Below are positions 3,038 to 19,625 of a stretch of 20,219 nt of DNA, in pieces. Below the pieces are notes generated by a model, which was not told the origin of the DNA, ran no database searches, and saw only the letters and a program-made list of their open reading frames with translations. Each line of letters opens with the position of its first letter. Within the stretch, counting starts at the first letter, position 1. A program made the translations under genes and the position numbers. The DNA is from Psammoneis japonica (taxonomy: Eukaryota), in NCBI GenBank assembly GCA_008632985.1, contig QPGO01000264.1, forward strand, positions 62,001-82,219, in the 5' to 3' direction.

Positions 3038-4423
3038 GCCAGACAAGAGAGGGAGGGCCCCAAAACTTTGTCAGTTCGGTCTCTCTCTAGCTGTTTCTCT
3101 AGCTAGAGCAGAGAGGTCATGCCCGCCAACCTTGCCAGCAGCAACAGATTGGTGCATCTCCGGTCCACAATTTTGCAAAACATCAAACGAAATGTGCTGC
3201 CATGGTCTTGCAATTGTTGCCGGCAGTTTGAAGAAGATGGAGTCCAGCTGCCAGCTAGAGAGGTCGTTCCATTGTTGTCATTCAAATTTCATCTTTCATT
3301 GTTCAGCTCATGTCATGTGACACAATGGCACCAGTTGGACCACATGACATGCGATGCTCTTCAGATCCAGCGGCATCATGAATGCAGGTGCATGGCAGCA
3401 GGCAGCTCCTGTTGTGTGGTGTCTCAAGAAACGCTCGGCGTCAAAGCTGTTCATTGCCCGGATCGAACGTGAAGACAAGTGTCACACAGGACGAGCCCTG
3501 TCGCGGTCGACTGTTGAGGCTAAAGAACAAAAGAAATGGGAATCCATGATGATTGTTTCCATGTGCAAGGCACTCAGTTGGTGTGTGATTTGCACAACAG
3601 AAGGCACCAATGGGCCAGTCCAAGAAGCAGTTGCTGATGACGCCTCCTCCTTGGTTGCTTCTTCACCATTGTTGCCTTCAATGGTTTCCCTGATGATGGC
3701 ACGAGCCACTCGTTCCAAGGAAAATGAGTCAATGATGGCCTGCACATCCCCTTGGAGGCAAGCGGTGCTTGGATGCATCCATGCTTGTTGGTGCCATCCG
3801 CATTTTCCTCCAGCAACACACGCTCGGATTCATGCACAATTCCCATGCTGCATGCAGCATCTAAACCCATGGGAGCAGTGACATTTCGATGCACACCTCC
3901 GGCACCAGGCAACAGATCCAACTCAATCTGCACTCCATCGTTGGCAGCAAGTCACATGGATTTCTTGACTCCGTTTCTCTCCACCAACTTGAGGTAAAAA
4001 TGGTGTCTGGCAACAACCATTTCACCTTTTCCCTTGAATCCCTGTTCAAGCAAGTGAACAAAGGAAGCTCTCAAAGCAACAGCAGCCACCTTTTTCCCTT
4101 CTGGAACTTGGCAACAACCCAACAGCGGATGCGCGGCATTTGTGGCAATGCAGCACTGACCGATCTCTTTGCACATCAATTCACAATCACTCCAATTGCA
4201 TTGGCATTGATCACATGCCAGCAACTGTGACCTTGGCACATTGCGCGGAGCATCTGATGTCAGCACAAGTGATTGCATCATCGGGTGTGGCAGAACATGG
4301 ATGCAAACTTGTCGTTTGGTGTGCGTTGCGTCATGTCGAATTTGTAAAAATTTCGATTTTGCTCCATAAAATTTCTTGTGGGTGCAACAGGTCATGACAG
4401 ATCTTGCGTTGAAGATCTGCGCA

Positions 4424-4514
4424 CATGATCCACCTCATCGTTTTGTCGTTCGTGCGCACGCTGAGTGTGCGAATGCGCGTGTGTGAATGACAACAGACGA
4501 TTCATGCACCTCTG
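4424..4514 (-). repeat. Right TIR of the hAT element
   Basis: Inverted copy of 1931-2021. Confidence 0.9.
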
Positions 4515-6002: not shown

Positions 6003-9000
6003 TCACGCAGCCTGTGCTACACCTTTTCCGGCATCCACAAGGCTTACCCACAGAGAGAAGACAGTGTTGAGCCGCATCTTGTCTTCCACTCCCTTGAAAA
6101 GAGCAAATCCTTCTGTTCTGTATTCTGTCAATGGATCCAGATACTGGTGTTGCCGCAAAATTACGCTTTCTTTCAAACCTTCCATTGACTGCAAGTGATC
6201 ACTCCATGCATTGTCCATTGACACAAGAGCAATGTAGTTTGCTGATCGAGAAAGAGATTCCGGTGAAAGAGATTTAATCTTTGAGTTGAAAACCTCCTCA
6301 ATGGCCACATTGATGAGAAATTTCACCCCATTTTTCGTCCCGTCCAGACAAATCGCTTGTCTTCAACAAGGGTCCAACCGGCGGGAAAAACTGACCAATC
6401 TTCTCTGCTACCTTCTCGACATTAACCGAGCCATCTTCACCAACCTGAGCCTTCACGATGTCTTCCACTGTGTCCTTGTTGTACGTTTTCACTATTTCCA
6501 GAGTATCTCCAGGGCGTCGAAAATAAAATGCTACGGCGACGGTTGTAGATCAAACTGCGTTGGTCGTTGAGCACCTCGTCAAATTTAAAGACTTCCCCGC
6601 GTATTTCGCGGTATTTTCCTTCCACGGCTCGTTGAACCTTGTCGATCGCTTCAGTGATTTGATCTGCTTCCACCGGCATGTCGTCCGATACTCGAAACAT
6701 TTTCAGCATTTTCTGGAGACTGTCACCGCCAAAAATAACAAACGACCGCGTAGCTGCATGTTGATGCGAGAACTTTCATGGCGATTAGTCCCCAAGACAT
6801 ACAAATCACCGCTTTTCAGAACCCGCTCTTTTTCTTCTTCCAAGACGGGTTTGTACACACTTTTTACAGCCTCCGCAGCGTCACGAAGTTTAATGATGAG
6901 ATCGGGATCTTCTTCGTTTTCGGTAGTGTCAGTTGCAACCGTCAAGATTTCGTCTAAATCGATAGCCGTAAGGTCTTTTCCAATCTCTTTCTTGATGGCG
7001 GAAGCCGCTTCCTTCAATGAAAGAACGACATCATCATCGATAGGACAAGGGAAATAGTCTTCAGAAGGCGAAGGAGGGAGCGTCGAAGCCTCCTCCTCAG
7101 ACAAAACTCCTTGCTCTACAAGAACAGACCTTGTTTTGATTCGAGCCATTGTTGTGGGACAACCACCCAGTAGAACCACCCAGTAGAATATCCTACCACC
7201 CCCAGCCATGTTTGTCGCAACCGTCACTACACCAACTCGTCCAGTTTGTGCGACGATTTCGGATTCGCGCGGCGCATTCTTTGGCGATGCATTGAGTAGC
7301 TCAGCCTCGATCCCCTCTTCTGCAAGGGCAGCTACAACCATTTCACTCTGTGCTACAGACGTGGTTCCGATTAGGCAGGGTCGACCATCCTCTTGGCCAC
7401 CACCGACGCCGAGTACTTCTTTGATCAGGGCATCATTTGCGGCCTTTCGTGTCTTGAATGCTACATCAGGATAATCGCGACGCGCAACTGGAAGCGCCGT
7501 AGGCACAGGCGTCACCTTTAGGTTGTACGTCAATTCCAATTCGTCGGCATCGGCCATTGCAGTTCCTGTCATGCCGGACAAGCGAGAATGTTCTGTTGGA
7601 GATAGCAAGAGAAGTGCGCCAGCGTTTTGACCCTCAAGTGCGAAGCTGGGCGCACGATTCGTCCTAAAGTAGAAGGAGTAGCGTACCTGATAAGTCACTT
7701 TTGCAATTACTTGACTTTGCTGCGAGACTTCGATACCCTCTTTGGCTTCGATGCTTTGGTGAAGGCCGTCCGACCACCTACGCCCATCCAAAACTCGCCC
7801 AGTAAATGCATCGATGATTCCAACACCATTCTCCTTACCATTCTCATCAGTCAGAATGGTGTACTCGACGTCTTTGTTGAAGAGCTCCTTGGCTTTCACC
7901 GTCTGCCTGGATAGCGAAAAGGCTATCAATACCCAATGCATTTTCTGCGTCGCGGTATCCCGTTTCAGTACGTACACAATTCTTATTCTTCTCATCCACT
8001 GTGTACTGGACATCTTTTCCAGGGCTTGTGCCAGGGTGCTGGCCGTTGCATACTTGTTGGCAGGCGCAGCAACCTGTTTCGAGATAACCAATGGGGTCCT
8101 CGCCTCATCAATCAATACCGAATCCGCCTCATCCACAACCCAAAAACCATTGAACTCTCCGGCACCCCCGGGCAAGATAGTTTGCGCAGGTGACAATGCC
8201 AAGTGGTCACGAAGGTAGTCAAATCCGAGTTCCGAATTCGTCACGTAGACAACATTACAAGCATACGACTTTTTCCGTTGCTCTTCTGTCATACCACTCT
8301 GAATAAGACCAACAGTCAATCCCAAGAATCGATGGACTTGGCCCATTTTCTCCATATCTCTTCTCGCCAAATAGTCGTTTTACGGTAATGACAAAGGAGG
8401 TGTTGCCTGTCAAGGCATTGACATAGCAAGGCAACGTTGACACGAGAGTCTTTCCCTCTCCAGTGGCCATTTCGGTCAGTCTTCCATCGTGCAGAATCAA
8501 ACCACCTAGCATCTGTAAATCGTAATGCCGCAATTCCAAAACGCGCCTTTGAAAAAAGTGAAAAAATTGGAATGAGAAGCGGCCGCTATGGAAACGGTTT
8601 TAGAGCCAGAACTATCTTGCTTTCTTGTATCTCACCATGCAGCTTCCCTGACCACCGCGAAGGCTTCTTCCAACAAAGGACCATTCACGTCTTCTCCTTT
8701 CTTGAGTCTCTCATGAAATTCGTTAGTTTTGGCCAGCAATTCATCATCGTCTAATTCCTCGATCGTTTCTTCCAAGCCATTGATCCGGTCGACGCGAGTC
8801 TTGAGGCCGGCCAGGTGCTTGTCGTTTTGAGCCTTTCATGTCTTTTCATCCGTTCTCTCCATGAAGTCATCAAAAAGGACATTTTCAATGCACCATTGGG
8901 ACATGATAAATTGGTGTTTCTGGCAGAAGCAACCGAGTGTGATCGGGCAAAGGAAACCGCAGCTTTCTTTTGAGGAAAACAAACGAGGATGCCTAATATC

Positions 9001-9585
9001 CCTGGTCCGTTCCTGGTCTCACTTATGTGAGACAGTGCCGAAATCTCGGTCATAGTCATTCATCGGGTCATTCAACCCCCTGTCTCACATTTGTGAGACC
9101 AGGATTTTATTTACATCAACGTCATCCTATGCTATATAAAATTGTGTTTTGCACGTCCAATGCAACATCCTGCATGAAAAACCCACTTTTAAAATGGCAG
9201 CTCCCAAATGTTTGTTCTGTACAATCTACGTGTTTTCCAGCACAAATCCTGGTCTCACATTTCTGAGGCCAGGGCCACATTTGCACCTAAAATGCCTCTC
9301 CCTTCCGGGTGCATCATGGAAAGCCGCTTTAGATTGTTCAAACGACTTCAACCACCAGACACTTGCGTTTGAGCATGCTTTGACTCCTTCGGTCTGCTCA
9401 GGTGTCAAATGACCGGCTCCTGTGTTGTTGTGGGTCACTGAAAACCTGGTCTCACTCCAGTGAGACCAGAATTCGCGGACCAGGGATGCAGGCAGAAAGC
9501 CACAACAGTGCCGCTGCTGTGACACAGAATGATGACCACGTCCCCTGACTGCCCGACACAAACCAGGCTTGCACAGCGGCTTCAT
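6003..9585 (-). pseudogene. secA: Nuclear-encoded plastid-type preprotein translocase SecA, disrupted
   Basis: Motifs [94 protein letters not shown] and FDEVLNDQR. Introns at about 8547-8633 and 7593-7686. Predicted ATG at 9585 once the MITE is removed, giving MKPLC...GFLPILGILVCFPQKKAAVSFARS (AVS-F resembles the ASAFAP cleavage motif). In-frame TGA near 8838, several frameshifts, a 13-bp duplication and internal deletions. Confidence 0.9.
9000..9485. mobile_element. piggyBac-like MITE (486 bp) inserted in the secA presequence
   Basis: Ends CCCTGGTCCG...CGGACCAGGG; flanks ATAT (8996-8999) and ATGC (9486-9489); four internal palindromes of the type CCTGGTCTCAC-N4-GTGAGACCAGG. Excision with a 4-bp TSD restores an open secA N-terminus. 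The superfamily call rests on the CCC...GGG ends and the 4-bp TSD. Confidence 0.75.
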
Positions 9586-10900: not shown

Positions 10901-11749
10901 TCACTTCTGAATCAATTTTTGACAGAAAAAGCCCATCATGAAACAACCCCACACAATGAGACTCAGAAATGAAAAAAGAATGTAAAAACAACCCTCTGAT
11001 TGTCTCTGTCTTTTGCCATTGTCATGGTGACATGACAGCGGTGGATGTGAAAAAAGAGGTGAGAGATTGGGCAATGAGCACAGCTCACCATTCTCCATGA
11101 AACGCGTGTTGAAACCACTGTGCCTGCGGGGAGCATTGACCACTTGTGTGTCTTTCTTTGTGGCTGTGGGTGGGTGTGTGCGTGCCATTGCATGCTGCAT
11201 TGCCTGCACTGCGCACACGTGCAGCATCAGTGAAGACTCTACAGTGCAGTGGTGGCGTGGCCACCACACCGGTGACACAGATGACCATTGTGTTTGATGG
11301 CTCATGCCATTTTTGGGGCTGTGGCGAGGTGCGCGGACACTCTTTTTTTTCAATTTATCGCCAAAATGGCGCATCGCACAAACTCTCTCACTGTTCGACA
11401 TGTCCTTTCCAATGTGACCATTTCGTGCAGAATTCACGACATGTTGTCTTCATTCAAAGCTGGGTGCATTTTTCAACATGCCACACTGGCAACCCCAATT
11501 TTACAACACTTTCGAGCTCTCCTGAAAAACCGTTCCACGCACCCGTCGCAGGGAATTTGTCGATTTTTTAGGATGTCCCCATGACCTCTAATGTCCTCAA
11601 TGATCATTCCCCAAATCCGAACACATCATTCACACCAAATGACCCATGCCATTCTAAAATCTGAGGGACACACTTTCAAAAGCAGACAAACTGCCCGACC
11701 CCCTGACTGCCCGACTGCACAACTGCACAACCCCCCGACACGAAAAAGA

Positions 11750-13015
11750 CTGCAATCACCAACCACTGAGTGGTCAATGAAAAGTCTGCAATCACCAACC
11801 ACTGAGAGTGTCTTTTCCAGTGAGTCGCAAACACAAACCTGTGTCTGCATGTCTTCCGATGCAAATGAGATTCACAAAAAATCATCATTTTTGGTGGATC
11901 GCAAACATGTTTTTTGCACCTTGGATGCGATCCACCTTCAAAATCGCAAACAACAATCGCAAATTTCTGGTGCAAAAAGGGTGCAGAAAACCTGTGGAAA
12001 GTGTGCGTCACCATGACGAGACAACAATCGATGCTTTCTTGATGAGAGGACCTTGCAGAGGCCCAACAACTGACACTTTGTTGCATCTTATGAACTTGCA
12101 CACGACGCGTTCCAGGTCCAGGTGGGACCTCGCACTGCTGAACTGTGACATCGACAGTTTTTTGAATCGCGTCGCATGTCGCGCACGCACATTTCTACGT
12201 GATTTTGGCGAAATTTTGTGTGATTTTACAGTGCAATTGTCAGGCTATCCATTGAACAACTTTTAACATTTTTTTCTTCTGCGCCATTCTCGAGTGTCTC
12301 AAGAATGGCGCAGGGCAGGCGCGTTGTCCAAAACTTCGAGTGCCAACATGGATGGATGCACTGCAAACTTGGCCGTTTTTTTTATGTCGAAGACAAATGC
12401 ATCCATTGGCCAGAGTACGAACTACAGAGCTCGCACGTAGAATTCTATGGGGCAAATGTCACAAAAAGTCCCACCTGGGACTGGAACCCGTCACACGGCC
12501 GCATCGAGATGTGAGAGGAGAGCGGACATGTGGGGGGTTTGTGGGGTCAGAAGAGAACAAGGCACAATTCGCACGACAACATTTCACTTGTTTTTGCAAT
12601 GTGGAATGACTTTCACAACATGGCAACACATGGGCACACACTGTGAATCATTCTCCAGTGACAGACGTCGACACATCTTTGAATGGATTGTGGTTTGTGT
12701 TGTGTGTTGCGCTCAAAGCCGCCATGGCATCATGCAATGTTCAACAACTCCATCCTGCCATCAGTTGGTTGTTGATGTTCATGCACGAAGTTGCTTGTTG
12801 CCTCAACGTCTGCCCAAACATCGGCCGAATGTGAGTGCGATTGTGGTCGACTGAAAATGATGGTCGCGCGCAGAACTGCAAACTTGTGCATGGCAGTCTG
12901 TTCGCTTGCCCTTTTTGGTCATGTTCCTGTGTTTGTGTTTGCGACTCACTGGAAAAGATGCTCTGAGTGGTCAATGAAAAGTCTGCAATCACCAACCACT
13001 GAGTGGTCAATGAAA
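11750..13015 (+). repeat. Three tandem 36-bp units (ctgcaatcaccaaccactgagtggtcaatgaaaagt), the second split by the Harbinger insertion
   Basis: Unit 1 at 11750-11785, unit 2 at 11786-11805 plus 12967-12982, unit 3 at 12983-13015. Each contains the palindrome ACCAC-TGA-GTGGT. Confidence 0.9.
11806..12963. mobile_element. PIF/Harbinger-like non-autonomous element, 1158 bp
   Basis: 33-bp TIRs GAG(TG/CA)TCTTTTCCAGTGAGTCGCAAACACAAAC at 11806-11838 and 12931-12963; 3-bp TSD TGA. The empty site CAC-TGA-GTG is visible in the sister repeat units and resembles the PIF target consensus CWCTTAGWG. Confidence 0.85.
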
Positions 13016-13017
13016 TT

Positions 13018-13101
13018 GAACTTTCGCGCGGAGCGCGAACTTTCGGCGAAAGTTGCCCCCTTTTGGAGCGCGAAGCGCTCCAACTTTCGGCTGAAAGTTG
13101 G
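13018..13101. other. Cluster of four closely packed DNA hairpins/palindromes
   Basis: ttcgcgc-GGA-gcgcgaa (13023-13039), aactttcg-G-cgaaagtt (13038-13054), ttggagcgc-GAA-gcgctccaa (13063-13083), ccaactttc-GGCT-gaaagttgg (13080-13101). Confidence 0.9.
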
Positions 13102-13256
13102 GAAACGGAGGGGCTCGCGCAGGAAAAAAAGTTCGTCCGTTGGTGTGTCCGTTGAGTCTTGAATGTGAATCTTGTAAAGAGTGAGTCGTGCGTTGAGTCG
13201 TCTTCAGTGAAACTGCCGCCACCGAAAACACGAAACGCGAAACCTCGCCATGGGCT

Positions 13257-13973
13257 ATGAAACAATGTCGCGCCGTCGCGAGAAGCCCTGGTGTCAAAGT
13301 AAGATACATGAAGAAGTGCATCATGGATGGGAAAACCGCCGACACCGCAATCCCTGTAGAAGAGCAGGACGTCGACGAATCGGCATCAATCAATCAGTCA
13401 AGTACCAGTTGTGTTGTGTCAAGTGTGCCAAGTGCCAATTGTGGTGTTGCTCATGTGCCAGTGTCTTCAGCACCAAATGGCATTACAGACAGTGTGGAAG
13501 CAACAAAGAAGAAACGAGGACGTCCTCGGAAGATCCGATCGCCCAAATTCGCGGTCTCGGATGCGCCGTTGTTTTATACACCGGATCTTCGAAAGAATTT
13601 GATGTCGTCGGAAAGCCAACACCAAAGTCAAGGCCGAAGCGTGGGTGGAATAGAAATGCACACAACCCAAACCAAGCTGCTGAGAAAGAGTTTGCAGGTG
13701 TAGTTTCAGATCTCTGCCAATCCAGACTCGATTCAATACCCAAGTTCCGCGACGGTGTCTTGTTGAAGGCTCGGCTTGAATTTGCTTTTTCTGGGAAGAG
13801 CCTCAAGGATGCAGGAGACATCGGACATCGACAACCTCTGTAAATTTGTTTTGGACAGCTTAAACACAGTGTTGTATCATGATGATTGGCAAGTTGTAGA
13901 GTTGTCGGCGCGAAAAGTACTTGCTTCGTCCGAATCTACCGGACGTACAGTCGTTACATTGAATGAAATTTGA
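13257..13973 (+). pseudogene. rusA: RusA-family Holliday junction resolvase with N-terminal AT-hook, two frameshifts
   Basis: KKKRGRPRK AT-hook; RusA N-terminus FDVVGKPTPKSRPKR...NPN; catalytic region DIDNLCKFVLDSLNTVLYHDDWQVVELSARK. Frameshifts at about 13575 and at about 13817-13830. The start may instead be the ATG at 13323. Confidence 0.85.
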
Positions 13974-14371
13974 AACAGATAGTTCTATAAATGTGCTGTA
14001 GCACCTAATCACTTGATGTGTGAGTTACTTTGCCTAGTTTCATTTTACTTTAGCCTACTTGTATCGCGATGAAGACGTTCTAGAGATGCTAGCGAGAAAA
14101 GCACTTGTTCGTACGAATCGACTGGTCGTTGCACTAAACCAAATTTGAAATAGCATTTTTCACTTGACACACATCTTACCTTGCTCTACTTGTATCTTTA
14201 TGATTGGCGCGTTGTGGAGTCATCAACGAGAAAAGCACACTCACTTCGTCCGAATCGACCGGACGCACAGTCGTTGCACGGCAACAAGTTTGAAATAGAA
14301 ATTTCTACAGCACAAGCTTCTATTAGAACTGTAGCACAATTGCTTGACATGTGTTTTACTTTGGCCCACTT
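13873..14371 (+). repeat. Three diverged tandem copies of the RusA 3' end plus the intergenic spacer
   Basis: Units at about 13873-14060, 14061-14190 (most degraded) and 14191-14371 share tgtatc, gaaaag(t/c)ac, cgaatc, gtcgtt(a/g)ca and tttgaaa; units 1 and 3 also share ctgtagcac and ttttacttt(a/g)gcc(t/c)actt. Confidence 0.85.
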
Positions 14372-16886
14372 CTTTGCATGTGGGTTCACGGGTTTGTTGG
14401 GACTGTTGCTGGCAGCTTTGGATGTGACCTTTTTCACGAATCCTGCCTGGATGCTCTGTCACTGCTCGCCGATGGTTGACACATTCTGAATCTTCCTTGT
14501 GCACCAGAACTCGAGCCTCAAGACCTGTGAAGCAAGGTTGTGTTCTTTCCTTCTTCTTGTCATCCAGTGGGTTCTTCATGCCACCGTCTTCTTCCATCTT
14601 CCTCATTCTTTCCAGGCAAGTGTTCTGAACAGCGCAGCAAACATTGTGAAAATCCACGGATTTGTCATCATGCAGACGAATCGTGCGCCACTGGTCTTCC
14701 GTCATGACGCATTCTAGGAGCTCAAAAGCTGCTTTAAACTTCTGTGGCTCTGCCTCACTGTTTGGAAACTTGAGGTGCAAAAGCCGCTCCTTGGCCAGCG
14801 CTGAAAGGTGACCAAGCTGCTTGAAGAAAAATTGGGCACACATGCAAAGAGACTTTTGCGCCTGTGCTGTCAGCCAAGCCGTCCACTTGATCATGCAATG
14901 TCAGCTTCTTTGTCTTTTTGTTTGATTTCTTCTTGCTTGCAAACCAAGTCAAGAACAGTGTCACAACAGTGGGAGATCGTGGCTTTCTCGTGGAGGCTGT
15001 GACAGGCTGAGTCGCAGTGGCTGACTCGTCAGAATCAACACGACATTGAGAAGTGGCCGGCACATCATCATCAGCAGCAGCAGCATCGGCATCGGCATGT
15101 CTGGTGTGCTTGCAGTGCTGGTGTCAACAGAGTCATTTGGAGTGGAGCCGGTGTTTTGATCAATGACTTTGCACTCGATGCCGTCATCTCGATTGGATGC
15201 TTTTTCATCCGCCAAATCCGTCATGCTGTCTTCCTCCTCTGGTGACAGGAGTTTGACGTTCATTTTCCTGCTCAGCTGATTGGCCTCAAGCTGAGCAATC
15301 TCCAAGTTGCAAAGGGCATGGGCTTGCTCAGAAAGCTTGGTGCATTGTGCATCACATGCCAACAATGCACATGACAGCAGCTCATTCTGATGCTTCAGCT
15401 GCACAGCAAGGTTGAGATCACTCAAAAGATCAGGATTGCGGTCTCAAAAGCTCTCATCCATTTTCTTTCCCCAGATCCAAAGCACTTGTGAGGTGTCAGC
15501 AACATTGCCATCACCAATCTTTGCTTCTGCCAATGGCTCTGGCGGAGTTTTTTGGAAACTTCAGCATGATGCTGAATCATGGCTGCCATGCAGGAGCACT
15601 AGAACAGATGAAGCTCCCCACCTGGCATGAATTGTTTGAGAGTGCCCAACATCACACACAATTTTTCAATGAGCCATTCAATGTCCTCTTGCACATGGCT
15701 CCCGACACATTCCAAGTTCGGAGCACATTTCTTGGTGGGAGCATCATCCCAGCCCATCATTGCATTGGCCACTGGAACAGTGAGCTGAGGTGCAATGCGT
15801 TTGCAAGTCTTGCCGTTGGGAGCTCTGCACGCCCATCCAACCAGAGTGTCAGCTTCTTCAACAGACACTCCTTGATGTGAATTCAAAAATGCAGCCATGC
15901 TGACTCCAATGGACTCAGAAGAACAATCAGTCTGCAGAACTGGGTTGACCTTGCCTCGAATGACACTGGTCGACTTTGCTGCAATGCACTTGTCAGAGAT
16001 GCTCCATGAGTCTGGAGATGCGTGCTTGTGGAGCTCCTTTTCCATGTGGTCTGGATGACAAAGACCTTTCTCACATGCATGGAAGCACGCAAAAGCACAA
16101 CAGAAAGAGACAAGAGCTTTTGTTTGGTGGGAAAAGGAGTCCATGCAAATCTGCTGTTTTGGGCTCACACCGCGCAGCTTCCAAATTCTCATGGAACAAA
16201 TCCCAGAACCATTTGTCATGACATTGATGCCTCATTTCCCCTCCACATCCGGCAGCCATGGTGCTTGCCAAAATCCAGCAATGCTGCTGAAGAGGACCAT
16301 TGTTCATCATTGTCCAACGTCGAACAAAATTGCATTGAAGAGCGAGTGAGAGACGCAATGTCTCTGCGTCGTTTGTGAGTGAACCATTCTCACATCTCAA
16401 TGTCGCACTTCTGTCTGTGACACAAGAATGGCATTTTGCTGCTTGGCTTGAAACAAGTGGCAAAGTCCTGCATTCGCTGCACTCGATGCTCAGCAAGTTG
16501 GCTTTGCCAGCGGCCTTTGCGGCATCACTGCACAGATCCTTGCACCACTTGTCCTCTTCTTCCCAGTCAGGGTGCTTAGGGAGCTTCATTTTTAGTTCTT
16601 CTTTCACCTTTCCAAAAATTTGCTGCTTTGTGTCAACTTTTATGAGCCTGTTGTTGGGATTGTCACGCCGACAGACTGGCTCTTCTGACAAGTGCTTGCT
16701 GAAGTGCATCATGAGTGCCCTGAGATGGCACCCGTCAACATGACACTCCTCCAATTGGTTGAACAGTTTCTCTTCATTTTTGTCTTGAATCGTGTCAAAC
16801 GTTTTGATTGCAGACTTTTCGCTGCTTGTGGCAGAAGAGGCTCGAGACGCCTTGTTGATGGGCGCCTCCAAGACCAAAGTGGGCAT
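14366..16886 (-). pseudogene. Degenerate tyrosine recombinase (Crypton-like), about 840 codons
   Basis: Ordered motif remnants AAG[C]GGE (TGT from CGT would give catalytic R-GGE), EPKT, D[C]SSESIG (SxxR position), xGW and KT[C]KR (TGC from TAC would give catalytic Y). ATG at 16886; stop reconstructed at 14366-14368. The call depends on back-mutating the regional signature. Confidence 0.6.
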
Positions 16887-17107
16887 CCTGCGCGGCTGAT
16901 CTGTGGCAGCGCATGGCTTCTGTGATGGCTGTGTGGCTGCTCTGCTTTTTTGTGAGACGACAGCTCTGCTGGTGCAACTGCATGTCTCCTCTCGAACACA
17001 GCACAGTGGCGCAGAAGTCTTGCAGGTGGGTGGTGAGTCTGATGGAAAATGTTCAGGCGCGGTTCAAGGTCACATGTTTATTCAGACATGAGGTGCTCTA
17101 TTACAGT

Positions 17108-17148
17108 CAACTTTCAGAGAACTTTCGGGTTACTTCTTCTGAAAGTTG
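17108..17148. promoter_or_regulatory. Perfect 11-bp inverted repeat (caactttcaga-N19-tctgaaagttg) with a third internal gaactttcgg; putative binding site or element end
   Basis: Read directly; same core as the hairpins at 13038-13054 and 13080-13101. Function is inferred. Confidence 0.55.
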
Positions 17149-17389
17149 CCGTTCTCTTATTACGGAAGAAAATTTCAACTCCGCCAAAAAAGTGTATGAA
17201 TTTGACAGTACGACAATCACGTAGGTTAGACAAATGAGCCGGTGTTGCAAAAACTGACCTGCAATCGATCGCATTCATTTTTTTTTATTTCGTCGACAAC
17301 ACTTGCATCTGCATCAACAGTGATTGCCGGGCAAAACGATCAAAAATGCAATAGAGACTGAAAGCTGTAGGCCCCTACCTTCTAACAAG

Positions 17390-19625
17390 ATGAAAGAATC
17401 TACGCAAAGACGCAGTTCAAGCTTCTCGCGCTCGTCGCGATGCTTGGAAGCTTATCAAATCAGTTTCACTTGTTCGCACATTGGGAGATATGTGGCTGGA
17501 TCCAAGAGAAAGATTTCGTGGTAAGCATTAGGTTGGTGCTTGTTGTTTTGGGCTGGCTGTACATCACTGGAATCTGAAACGAGCGACGGCATACAGTAGG
17601 GTGTCATCGTTGTCGACGGGGTCGGAGACGCTCAATTTGCGGTACGGTACACAGTCGGAGTCTCGCGGGACAGGAAAAGTGGCGCGCTTTCGACCGGCGC
17701 CTTTTCTTCGTATTTCTTATTTCTTCATTTACGAAGCAACGTATTATTTTGATATCGTGTTTTTTGTTCGTATGTTATTTGGTCTTCTTGTATGAAATCG
17801 ACCGTTGTTTGTTATAAATATATTCAGTGCAGTATATATCACTCGTCTCTATCGCGTTCTTTATGGCGCGTGGACATTTCCTCAGATTTACCAAGATTTA
17901 CCTCATTTTTTGCTCCGTCGTGAACAACAGGCGGTTTGGGTTGATGGACTCAGTATGCTTAGAGTCATCTCGCGGTGGACAACGCGAGAGTGTTCCCTCA
18001 GGTCAAGATCATGAGGTAAAGATATCCGTAAATCGTCGGTAGCTTTCCCATAGAGACTTTCGTTGAACTATTATCGACCTCACAACTAACTTTGTGTACT
18101 TTTTCATACGTTTCATAGATGCATCTCATCTGGTCAGTGCAGAGCAAGAAGTCGCGCGTCGTGTGGAACAACACTGATATTACAAGCCTCATCAGATCTG
18201 GAAACAAGGCTACAAGTACGCACTCCCATGTGGAATATGCTTGGGAGGGAAGTATGGGTATGAAGTTCAGAATTGTTGCACACGCTAACCCGTCTCTAGG
18301 ACGTCGACAGTACGATCTATTCATATGCGAGAAAAGCTTCGTTTCTCTGCCTCAGCTGTCTCAAATATTGTCAAGATATTACCAGAGTCATCAGATTGTG
18401 TCCGCTAACTTAAAAGATTGCCATGAGCAGGAGGCAAAGACTGATGTCCCCGTGAAGTGTTCTCTTCCTAGAGTTGATAGCCGTTTTAGGTCGCGACAAT
18501 GTGGCCGTGACCGTCCACTCACTCGTCAGCGACAGAATCGTCTTGCGGCCGCTGGATTTTCATGTGTGGATTCTTTTGACGAGCTCCAGTCAGATTTGTA
18601 TACGTCAAGTCTTGACAGACTCAGAGCGGAGATGGCTTCGTCTGTTCCACAGACTGAAGACATGGTGTCTAGAGCGATCATAGACGCCTTTGCAGAAGAC
18701 CACGAAAACAGTTATCATTCCGTCTTATCCGCGGAAGAACACGAGCTTGACGCTACTAAATTCGAAGCCGAAGTTCTTTGGGAAACAAAACTTTGGGTCG
18801 AGAAAAACGGAGATTTTAATGGCTTGTACGCAGAAGAATCGAGGTTGCGATACATGCGCGAACAGGTCAACTGCATTGTCTCACATGTGCGGCATCAAAG
18901 ATTGTCTGCGACAGACGCCGCTGTCATACTGCGTAGTACTGCTGCAATCTTAGACTTGAATCTTTCGAAACCGCTTCAAAGGAATACGGTCATCGTTTCT
19001 GGCCTGAGTAACGATGTCAACTGCGAAGATATGATAGAGGCTATGCAAGAATTTGGATGCATCCAAAGAGCTGCCTTAGTGGAAGGTCAAGGCGCTGGTA
19101 TGTAGTTGTGGAGAATCAAATGCAGATATTTGTACCACGACTTTTTGTTCATTCCTCTTCTTTTCACCGTTGCATGGTACAGGGATTTGTCGATACGGAT
19201 CATCGTTGGCTGTTAGTCTTGCGTTCAAGGCAGCAAATCAAAACCAACTGACAATTTCAAATTCAAAACCTACTCTATTTGACTTGAATGAATCGGACAG
19301 CGCCGGCATACTCGACAGTCACAACGTTCCTACAAGTGATCAAGAAACCAAGCTTGCAAGGCGAACTCGGTCTGATGAGCGACCCTTGTCACCGCTTCGT
19401 CACTTGTTCCAGCCCACGGAGCAGGATTTGTCGGAGTTTGACGTCTTTACTCCTCACAGAAGGTCGTTTTCTTTCTACGAAACTCATCGTAAACATCTTC
19501 ACCACCGCTCGTCCGGTGAAGCGCCAGGAGCTCAGATTCTATCACCTTCGGAGAGAACAACGAGTACGACGTCATCAGTGGAGGTAGATGACCTCCATGT
19601 CCTTTCCTTGAGAGTCCCTGAATGA
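17390..19625 (+). CDS. Intact 4-exon hypothetical protein (545 aa) with an RRM-like segment in the C-terminal half
   Basis: Exons 17390-17520, 17931-18015, 18119-19097 and 19183-19625. All introns are GT-AG and phases are consistent (1638 nt); CTAAC branch site at 18086. TVIVSGLSNDVNCEDMIEAMQEFGCI...GICRY resembles RNP2/RNP1. Normal TA and CG content. Confidence 0.8.

Follow-up and report, generated by a model that had tools for sequence, protein, structure and literature searches.

A decayed pair of convergent tyrosine recombinase and RusA resolvase genes in Psammoneis japonica, probably the relic of a Crypton-like element

Introduction

Cryptons, eukaryotic DNA transposons that rely on a tyrosine recombinase, are rare; their limits are ill-defined and their mechanism is untested. 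A tyrosine recombinase is also found beside other element-encoded DNA enzymes in the Tec1 and Tec2 elements of Euplotes, where it is paired with a DDE transposase, and in the Starships of fungi, which are huge cargo carriers with a DUF3435 "captain"; to our knowledge neither Tec elements nor Starships encode RusA. Here we analyze a stretch of 20,219 nucleotides from Psammoneis japonica (assembly GCA_008632985.1, contig QPGO01000264.1, positions 62,001–82,219 of the forward strand), to which all coordinates below refer and which we call the window. Within it, a gene of the RusA family of Holliday-junction resolvases on the plus strand and a tyrosine recombinase gene on the minus strand converge, an arrangement described in an earlier note on this DNA and seen again by us. 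In our view the locus is probably what decay has left of a Crypton-like element equipped with a resolvase gene of its own.

As far as the accessible parts of the survey by Kojima and Jurka (2011, PMC3212892) go, elements of the type CryptonS are known from oomycetes and one diatom and have a conserved C-terminus other than GCR1_C, together with terminal direct repeats of 5–6 bp. The same parts report that some Cryptons carry a second open reading frame (ORF), coding for a C48 peptidase, and that Ndc10/Cbf2 was derived from CryptonF; Tec elements are mentioned in them, and the words "resolvase" and "Holliday" occur in them 0 times. The ends of Cryptons are marked by short terminal direct repeats (4–6 bp) or, in CryptonS, by TATGG termini.

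The window unit shares several of these features, its likeness to Cryptons being judged by description, without direct comparison to the Repbase Crypton sequences. Going by what is accessible of that survey, both are eukaryotic DNA elements with a tyrosine recombinase of several hundred residues as the only recombination enzyme and no reverse transcriptase, both have low copy numbers, boundaries that are hard to define and no long terminal inverted repeats, and a second ORF is found in some Cryptons as it is here. Like CryptonS, the recombinase family of the window has a conserved C-terminal region, for which a GCR1_C-like identity is neither shown nor excluded, and its structural match to Ndc10 (Z 12.0) fits the origin of Ndc10/Cbf2 from CryptonF. 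The differences are equally clear: the second gene encodes a RusA resolvase rather than a C48 peptidase, the two genes are placed tail to tail and each is preceded by a cluster of motifs, Lys or Arg stands where the H-x-x-R box has its histidine, and a Pfam Phage_integrase or DUF3504 match (E ≤ 0.01) is absent from 15/15 recombinase homologues scanned.

Two other systems are close to one half of the unit each. In structure, the catalytic domain of the recombinase comes closest to Flp of the 2-micron plasmid (Z 12.6, root-mean-square deviation 4.0, 236 residues aligned), whose target FRT resembles the ends of the window unit in that each site holds three copies of a short motif, one of them inverted relative to the other two. 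However, identity to Flp is only 11–13%, Flp works without a separate resolvase, and the unit described here lacks Rep and partition genes, its copies as we have seen them being chromosomal. On the other side, the RusA proteins of phages (PF05866, phrog_140; lambdoid and other phages) belong by profile to the same family as the window gene and share with it the motif D-x-D-N-L-x-K ... D-D-x-Q, but the latter differs in its eukaryote-like context, in an N-terminal extension with an AT-hook-like motif and in its fixed position beside a tyrosine recombinase. A literature search, with Repbase and subscription journals outside its reach, found no description of an element with a tyrosine recombinase and RusA in eukaryotes, and the pairing looks like an undescribed kind of mobile element.

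The Minus-Strand Gene: A Dead Tyrosine Recombinase

The gene on the minus strand spans 14430–16886 (the lower limit being approximate, ~14430) and was delimited by homologue search, tblastn, alignment and a map of its stops as a full-length but dead pseudogene. Its ORF at 15602–16231 (ORF B) retrieved 22 proteins at E ≤ 1e-3, seven of them at E ≤ 1e-10, among 1.84 billion representatives; this is a rare and patchy family, with members mostly of 750–830 aa, one of which comes from a Rhodella transcriptome record, which points to expression. When these homologues were placed on the window by tblastn, homology to the ~800-aa family ran from 16817 down to 14460, passing from frame -1 (16817–16092) to frame -2 (16153–15506) and back to frame -1 (15527–15162 and 14819–14460). 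The reading is interrupted by at least two frameshifts, a stop at 15599–15601 and three in-frame stops at 14901–14965. Introns were considered as a cause of the frame changes and ruled out, because the homology overlaps across each shift and no residues are missing.

Domain searches with Pfam and PHROGs on five minus-strand frames of the window gave nothing, the protein atlas had no usable match for ORF A (best 0.80) or for a neighboring ORF of 328 aa, and 14 of the 15 homologues scanned have no Pfam domain at all, the remaining one (P0007) being an unrelated repeat protein. The family alignment carries the signature G-R-G-G-E, a conserved Lys, S-S-(K/R)-S-I-R-K-G and R-G-G-W, followed by a Tyr nine residues on; R199, E202, K228, H250, R314, and Y347 are invariant (15/15), as is W338 (7/7), and the spacing is Cre-like. 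An AlphaFold model of one homologue, P0003 (pLDDT 73.8), matched Flp and Ndc10 best, with the values given above, followed by Cre (~Z 10) and by Xer and lambda Int (Z 7–9.5), and the top 45 rows of this fold search were all recombinase or topoisomerase-IB folds. Foldseek taken by itself was weak (best E 0.023), and the family profile gave nothing meaningful against PDB sequences (best E 0.058, in a coiled region). On the modeled fold of this homologue and the presence of the expected catalytic residues, the minus-strand family is a tyrosine recombinase, which is what the earlier note had suspected from the degenerate gene and had suggested examining by structure prediction.

The catalytic positions have largely decayed in the window copy, where both catalytic arginines and the tyrosine are gone. 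Read on the minus strand, Arg has changed to Cys in GCGGE (16250–16236), His to Cys in CCAFAC (16102–16085), Lys/Arg to Glu and Arg to Gly in SSESIGVS (15922–15899) and Tyr to Cys in GKTCK (15814–15800), and the Trp of TLVGW (15847–15833) is retained. Since these residues are lost and the frame is broken by frameshifts and stops, the window copy must be regarded as dead.

Downstream of the catalytic part, 14460–14819 on the minus strand corresponds to a conserved helical C-terminal domain that is the family's own, with the motifs ELLECV (14723–14706) and GLEARV (14525–14508). Folded alone it reached a pLDDT of 71.2, and no convincing match was found for it among PDB folds (best Z 5.2) or with Foldseek (E ≥ 0.54). 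The viral-contig scan for the recombinase and the scans of prokaryote genomes with its patterns returned 0 relatives each.

The Plus-Strand Gene: A RusA Resolvase with an N-Terminal Extension

The converging gene, at 13257–13973 on the plus strand, is a RusA-family resolvase pseudogene, recognized by Pfam, PHROG, a family profile, tblastn frames, alignment and a stop map. The family assignment made in the earlier note stands on firm ground here: the part at 13776–13970 matches Pfam RusA PF05866 (E 1.1e-10, 42.7 bits against a cut-off of 22.8) and phrog_140 (E 2.7e-13), and a profile built from 18 homologues recovers both the C-terminal part (79.5 bits) and, in another frame, the N-terminal part (13211–13840, 70.9 bits). 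Its reading starts in frame 3 (13257 to ~13575), moves to frame 2 (~13577–13822) and returns to frame 3 (13824–13973). Two frameshifts thus break the gene, the first near 13565–13583 and the second produced by an exact tandem duplication of the 7 bp GACATCG (13817–13830, plus strand); both genes of the pair are pseudogenes. The acidic catalytic motif has remained intact in the last segment (13824–13973), where it reads D-I-D-N-L-C-K ... D-D-W-Q, and across the family D116, D118, K122, D137, and Q139 are invariant in 14/14 aligned members. RusA enzymes cleave Holliday junctions as dimers, and three aspartates and a lysine are the catalytic residues of Escherichia coli RusA.

Using the RusA of one metagenomic locus (L001, see below) as query, we found 18 homologues, all from metagenomes, 17 of them (17/18) annotated with PF05866. 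These element RusAs have an N-terminal extension of 60–170 residues. The AT hook that the earlier note had read in this gene holds in part: RGRPRK at 13506–13538 is AT-hook-like, and a GRP-core motif occupies this site in 11/15 full-length homologues and also in the window, yet the Pfam AT_hook model gives only 11 bits, below its cut-off of 17.4. Most of the homologues P0023–P0036 have in addition V-I-D-L (or V-I-N-L / A-I-D-L) and an acidic run near the N-terminus, absent from the window copy, which we take to resemble a SUMO-interaction motif.

Outside the family the nearest RusAs are phage proteins, with 26–47% identity, and the gene appears as a Holliday-junction resolvase of phage origin to which an AT-hook-like extension has been added at the N-terminus. 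When 19 rows of the family and 45 of phages were placed in one tree, the RusA of locus L003 (see below) sat nearest to the AT-hook RusAs, and a single clade of element RusAs is not rejected (approximately unbiased test, p 0.409). Several further searches came back empty: the L001 RusA had 0 matches among PDB sequences, RusA-family patterns found 0 relatives in the prokaryote genome scans, there was no close RusA in the viral-contig collection, and a word-index search with the frameshifted RusA piece of the window found nothing.

Comparison of repeats showed that the last ~115 nt of RusA and the sequence downstream of them are present three times on the plus strand, at 13872–13987, ~14060–14176 and 14190–14321. 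It had been claimed in the earlier note that the 3' ends of both genes lie in one duplicated unit; this applies to RusA, whereas homology to the recombinase stops at 14460, and what enters the third copy of the RusA tail is just the stretch beyond it, down to 14241, in which the minus-strand frame stays open by read-through.

Recurrence of the Pair in Other Lineages

A metagenome scan with seven members of the recombinase family as queries yielded five loci (L001–L005). In three of them (L001, L002, and L003) the pair recurs, mostly intact, a RusA gene following tail to tail directly behind the recombinase, with a stop-to-stop distance of 104 nt in L002 and 17 nt in L003. L001 and L002, which share 98.5% identity across 2855 nt, were counted as one lineage; in both the RusA ORF is intact (192 and 294 aa), is located on the opposite strand and contains R-G-R-G-R-P-R-K. 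L003 is a distant relative, with a recombinase in an open frame of 723 aa that is only 30% identical to P0003, a RusA of 170 aa without the AT hook, and a thioredoxin-like gene starting 350 nt beyond the start of RusA. A complex predicted for the recombinase and the RusA of this locus, run without controls, scored 0.00.

The recurrence of the linkage in L001/L002 and in L003 rules out a chance adjacency of the two genes, and it gives the two-gene unit proposed in the earlier note, which had itself called for a search for tail-to-tail linkage elsewhere, a basis outside the window. In L001–L003 and in the window the recombinase and RusA are alone within ~4 kb (nothing else was found with Pfam), without a reverse transcriptase or DDE gene, and many of the contigs bearing homologues are unit-sized, at 3.1–3.9 kb. 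A RusA match (P0030) and a recombinase match (P0005) come from the same source type, and for each the longest contig measures 3467 nt; if, as is possible, this is a single contig, it would represent a fourth linked lineage. The fifth locus, L005, is too short to tell about RusA. In L004, which has 39% G+C, a 68-nt direct repeat (1–68 and 88–155, 96% identical) duplicates the start of the recombinase coding region.

The two nearly identical loci, taken from different metagenome records, have lost the recombinase in different ways. It is disabled by two TGA stops in L001 (736–738 and 2452–2454) and by a 1-nt deletion near 228 in L002, and the two copies differ by 12 synonymous and 18 non-synonymous changes, RusA being open in both. 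This is the pattern expected of neutrally decaying copies.

Motif Clusters at the Outer Ends

A cis block was delimited upstream of RusA, at 13010–13101, by motif scan, DNA fold and conservation against L002. It holds five copies of AACTTTC (13019+, 13038+, 13048-, 13082+, 13093-) and four short palindromes (CGCGC-N3-GCGCG, AACTTTC-N3-GAAAGTT, GGAGCGC-GAA-GCGCTCC, and CCAACTTTC-N4-GAAAGTTGG). The counterpart upstream of the recombinase is a cluster at 17109–17147, made up of AACTTTCAG at 17109+, AACTTTCGG at 17120+ and AACTTTCAG again on the minus strand at 17139–17147, the outer pair of motifs forming an 11-nt stem; a weaker TTGAAATTTTC-type match follows at 17167–17182. All the window matches of AACTTTCRG (6/6) fall at 13038–13099 and 17109–17147, with 0.63 expected and 0/100 shuffles reaching six, and so do 8/10 matches of the 7-mer AACTTTC in the two clusters. 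The motif was therefore correctly placed at both outer ends by the earlier note, but its copies occur on mixed strands (+ + - + - on the left, + + - on the right) and the ends are not simply inverted, as had been thought. The hairpins reported on the left side are also there: 13010–13105 folds as DNA at -27.9 kcal/mol (z -4.49, 0/200 shuffles as good), and 17100–17185 with z -2.56 (3/200 shuffles as good).

The left block is conserved in another lineage. About 67 nt upstream of RusA are shared between the window and L002, with three palindromes in the same order and a local alignment score of 58 against 19.2 ± 2.5 in shuffles (0/300), the proteins being only 35–55% identical. In L003 a TTTCGCGCGAAA-type palindrome lies ~130 nt upstream of RusA, and the region as a whole is marginally similar to that of L002 (3/300 shuffles) and not significantly to that of the window (38/300). 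A four-way alignment has only a ~14-nt word in common, resembling AAATTGA-NN-TTTCG, and the ends of L001 and L002 compared with each other are not above chance (17/300 shuffles). The conserved cis element upstream of RusA and the short motif common to both ends of the window unit are real. Homology to L002 begins at ~13012, right after a truncated second copy of a 36-bp repeat, which makes ~13012 our best guess for the left limit of the unit. The TTTCGNNCGAAA pattern has one match in the window and is not enriched (51/100 shuffles reach this), and a search of 11000–17600 with Rfam gave only a sub-threshold match to a miRNA model (17271–17349, 19.4 bits against 51).

Relatives in the Same DNA Sample

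Three DNA runs of one sample contain the stretch, and their contigs were placed on the window at 80% likeness; there is no RNA run among the listed sequencing runs that contain it. Contigs identical to the window have depths of 32–38, depth in these data not being a copy number, and cover every frameshift site. Errors of assembly were ruled out as the source of the frameshifts, since these exact-match contigs, which come from an independent assembly of the sample reads, reproduce them.

Diverged relatives are present in the same sample at 7–10 times the k-mer depth of the window copy. Contigs with 83–84% identity have a depth of 266 (942 nt, covering 14335–14829) and 360 (759 nt, covering 15136–15500), and relative contigs of depth 358–391 carry an additional C after 13565 and five additional nucleotides at 16099–16103, the sites where RusA and the recombinase of the window change frame; the C after 13565 accounts for a depth of 357.7 of 451.1. 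The contig of depth 266 skips from 13950 to 14124 and from 14153 to 14335 and is thus without the two extra copies of the RusA tail. There is also a deletion form, a contig of depth 29.6 that joins 14662 to 16861. Such an excess in depth would fit either an episome or the presence of several copies in the genome.

Nature of the Unit

We think it quite likely that the relic is what remains of a small eukaryotic DNA element, dead and at single-copy depth, of ~3.8–4.2 kb with two convergent genes, one for a tyrosine recombinase of ~800 aa that resembles Flp, Cre and Ndc10 and has a conserved C-terminal domain of its own, and the other for the RusA resolvase. No finding overturned the proposal in any of the ways that the earlier note had foreseen, for instance a minus-strand protein that is not a tyrosine recombinase or a RusA gene that stands alone in relatives. 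In an intact element, the recombinase would bind the clustered AACTTTCRG / TTTCG..CGAAA boxes, which precede each gene by 130–280 nt and stand at the outer ends (on this reading the approximate boundaries), and would excise and re-integrate the unit through a circular form by site-specific recombination, as proposed for Cryptons. RusA, tethered to DNA through its AT-hook-like motif, would cut a four-way junction. Its substrate might be the recombinase's own Holliday intermediate, in which case a single strand exchange would be sufficient and irreversible, or else a junction formed during replication of the free form. That RusA would serve to resolve the junctions of excision or integration is purely our inference.

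A bolder proposal, possible in our opinion but to be taken as tentative, is that the pair stands for a new class of mobile DNA in eukaryotes, built on the obligate partnership of a Flp/Cre-like recombinase with a RusA captured from a phage: the recombinase would make the first strand exchange only, at the AACTTTCRG boxes, and the AT-hook-tethered RusA would cut the junction, unless the pair instead maintains a 2-micron-like nuclear episome in algae.

Several observations weigh against the unit having been a mobile element with its own resolvase. Neither an empty site nor a target duplication came to light, and the same holds for exact ends and for any insertion polymorphism (no whole-genome search was made). 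Tyrosine recombinases normally resolve their own junction, so that the need for RusA is not obvious. The left end aligned to the reverse-complemented right end scores 20, a value that 118/300 shuffles also reach, so the unit has no extended terminal inverted repeat; neither does the region upstream of the window recombinase align with that of L001 (256/300 shuffles reach its score). Linkage is seen directly in three lineages only (the window, L001/L002, and L003); for the remaining 17 RusA homologues, membership in the element is deduced from homology alone, and L004, with a recombinase 27% identical, has no RusA within 870 nt downstream of it. The 7–10-fold excess in depth could come from an episome or from another genome in the sample. 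Finally, at 130–280 nt from both start codons the boxes are at a promoter-like distance, and several read TTTCGCGC, which we take to be like E2F-type cell-cycle promoter sites; they may be common promoter elements rather than recombination sites, two roles that this distance makes inseparable.

Among the alternatives, the one that survives best, improbable as we judge it, is that a small nuclear episome, comparable to the 2-micron plasmid of yeast, has left an integrated and now decayed copy in the window. The recombinase of such an episome would control copy number or produce monomers by acting on the repeated boxes, RusA would deal with junctions that arise when the free molecule replicates or recombines, and the chromosomal copies would be accidental. 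That Flp of the 2-micron plasmid gives the best structural match would be readily understood, as would the three copies of the 9-mer at each end, two direct and one inverted, which presumably recall the three-repeat layout of FRT, the many unit-sized contigs and the 7–10 times higher depth of the sample relatives over the chromosomal copy. Nonetheless, the loci of 3.3–5.2 kb contain no replication or partition gene, no contig overlaps itself at its ends as a circle should (0 repeats when L001 and L002 were each compared with themselves), the cellular genes that flank L003 and the window make both clearly chromosomal, and the deletion form at single-copy depth fits dispersed genomic copies.

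The promoter-like position of the boxes leads to a second alternative, which we regard as slightly less probable still, namely a non-mobile, co-regulated pair of host genes in which a domesticated recombinase-like protein and RusA would take part in nuclear or organellar DNA repair, driven by common cell-cycle promoter boxes, with the window as a duplicated and decaying paralogue. Besides their distance from each start codon, some boxes match TTTCGCGC / TTTCGCGCGAAA, for which we assume an E2F-type reading, and RusA has gained eukaryote-style motifs. Repeated domestication of Cryptons is also documented in the accessible parts of the Crypton survey (PMC3212892). A host function is, however, difficult to reconcile with two dead genes in the window, with a recombinase that is differently disabled in L001 and L002 under near-neutral substitution, with the higher-depth relatives and the deletion form in one sample, or with a family so rare and patchy (22 matches among the 1.84 billion representatives), and the invariance of the catalytic residues across intact members is as expected of an active recombinase. 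An integration and resolution module of a larger virus-like element (a giant-virus insert or polinton-like virus), of which the window would be a fragment, is very unlikely: RusA is phage-type, with phage RusAs as its nearest outside relatives (26–47% identity), and algal giant endogenous viruses carry tyrosine recombinases and junction resolvases according to the accessible portion of PMC13236599, but the resolvase there is A22-type, the word RusA occurring 0 times in that portion, the viral-contig collection contains neither a recombinase relative nor a close RusA, a cellular thioredoxin-like gene lies 350 nt from RusA in L003, and the window flanks consist of a SecA gene, other repeats and non-viral ORFs.

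Flanking Sequences

The window has ~47% G+C and many short unrelated frames, and looks like eukaryotic nuclear DNA. A SecA gene is located on the minus strand at 6703–8379 (Pfam SecA_DEAD, E 4e-52, with P-loop_SecA and SecA_PP_bind), as one open frame with an intron-like in-frame insert. At 7161–7188 this SecA-like gene has a perfect 13-bp tandem duplication (2.2 copies), inside the region where we would presumably expect an ATPase motif; together with the 7-bp duplication in RusA, this makes two genes of the window that carry a short tandem duplication.

The 36-bp repeats to the left of the cis block, which the earlier note had counted as part of the unit, belong to the flank, because they recur at 11730–11806 and are split by another inverted-repeat unit. 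The array (11730–11806 and 12963–13015) is interrupted by 1.17 kb bracketed by 41-nt inverted repeats (11798–11838 and 12931–12971, 93% complementary), and a sample contig of depth 43 joining 11715 to 12977 looks like the form without this insert. Inside the latter, at 12104–12492, lies a unit of 389 bp resembling a miniature inverted-repeat transposable element, with 25-nt inverted ends that are 88% complementary. Its summed contig depth is 46,000–125,000 in the bins of 12005–12606, compared with ~100 in the flanks, loose contig ends accumulate at 12104 and at 12492/12493, and 393–430 nt of this region are missing from several contigs. Further away, long inverted repeats at 1931–2074 and 4361–4514 (91 nt at 91% and 40 nt at 73%) enclose ~2.3 kb and are possibly another inverted-repeat element, and a palindromic repeat family of the GGTCTCAC...GTGAGACC type is present at 9007–9470 in four to five copies arranged in inverted pairs.

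Biological Meaning

That a resolvase has been kept beside the recombinase across a divergence as deep as 30% protein identity would imply that the resolution of junctions is a limiting step for such elements. If the proposed division of labor is true, it would amount to a "recombinase makes, resolvase breaks" pathway of transposition, which is not known for any eukaryotic transposon, and the RusA gene would be a clear case of a phage enzyme captured and adapted to eukaryotic chromatin, with its AT hook and the run resembling a SUMO-interaction motif. If the genes should turn out to be a host pair instead, they would provide a new example of recombinase domestication. The two proteins and one motif offer a concrete system for reconstitution, and a compact pair of recombinase and resolvase with a short DNA box might be of interest for genome engineering.

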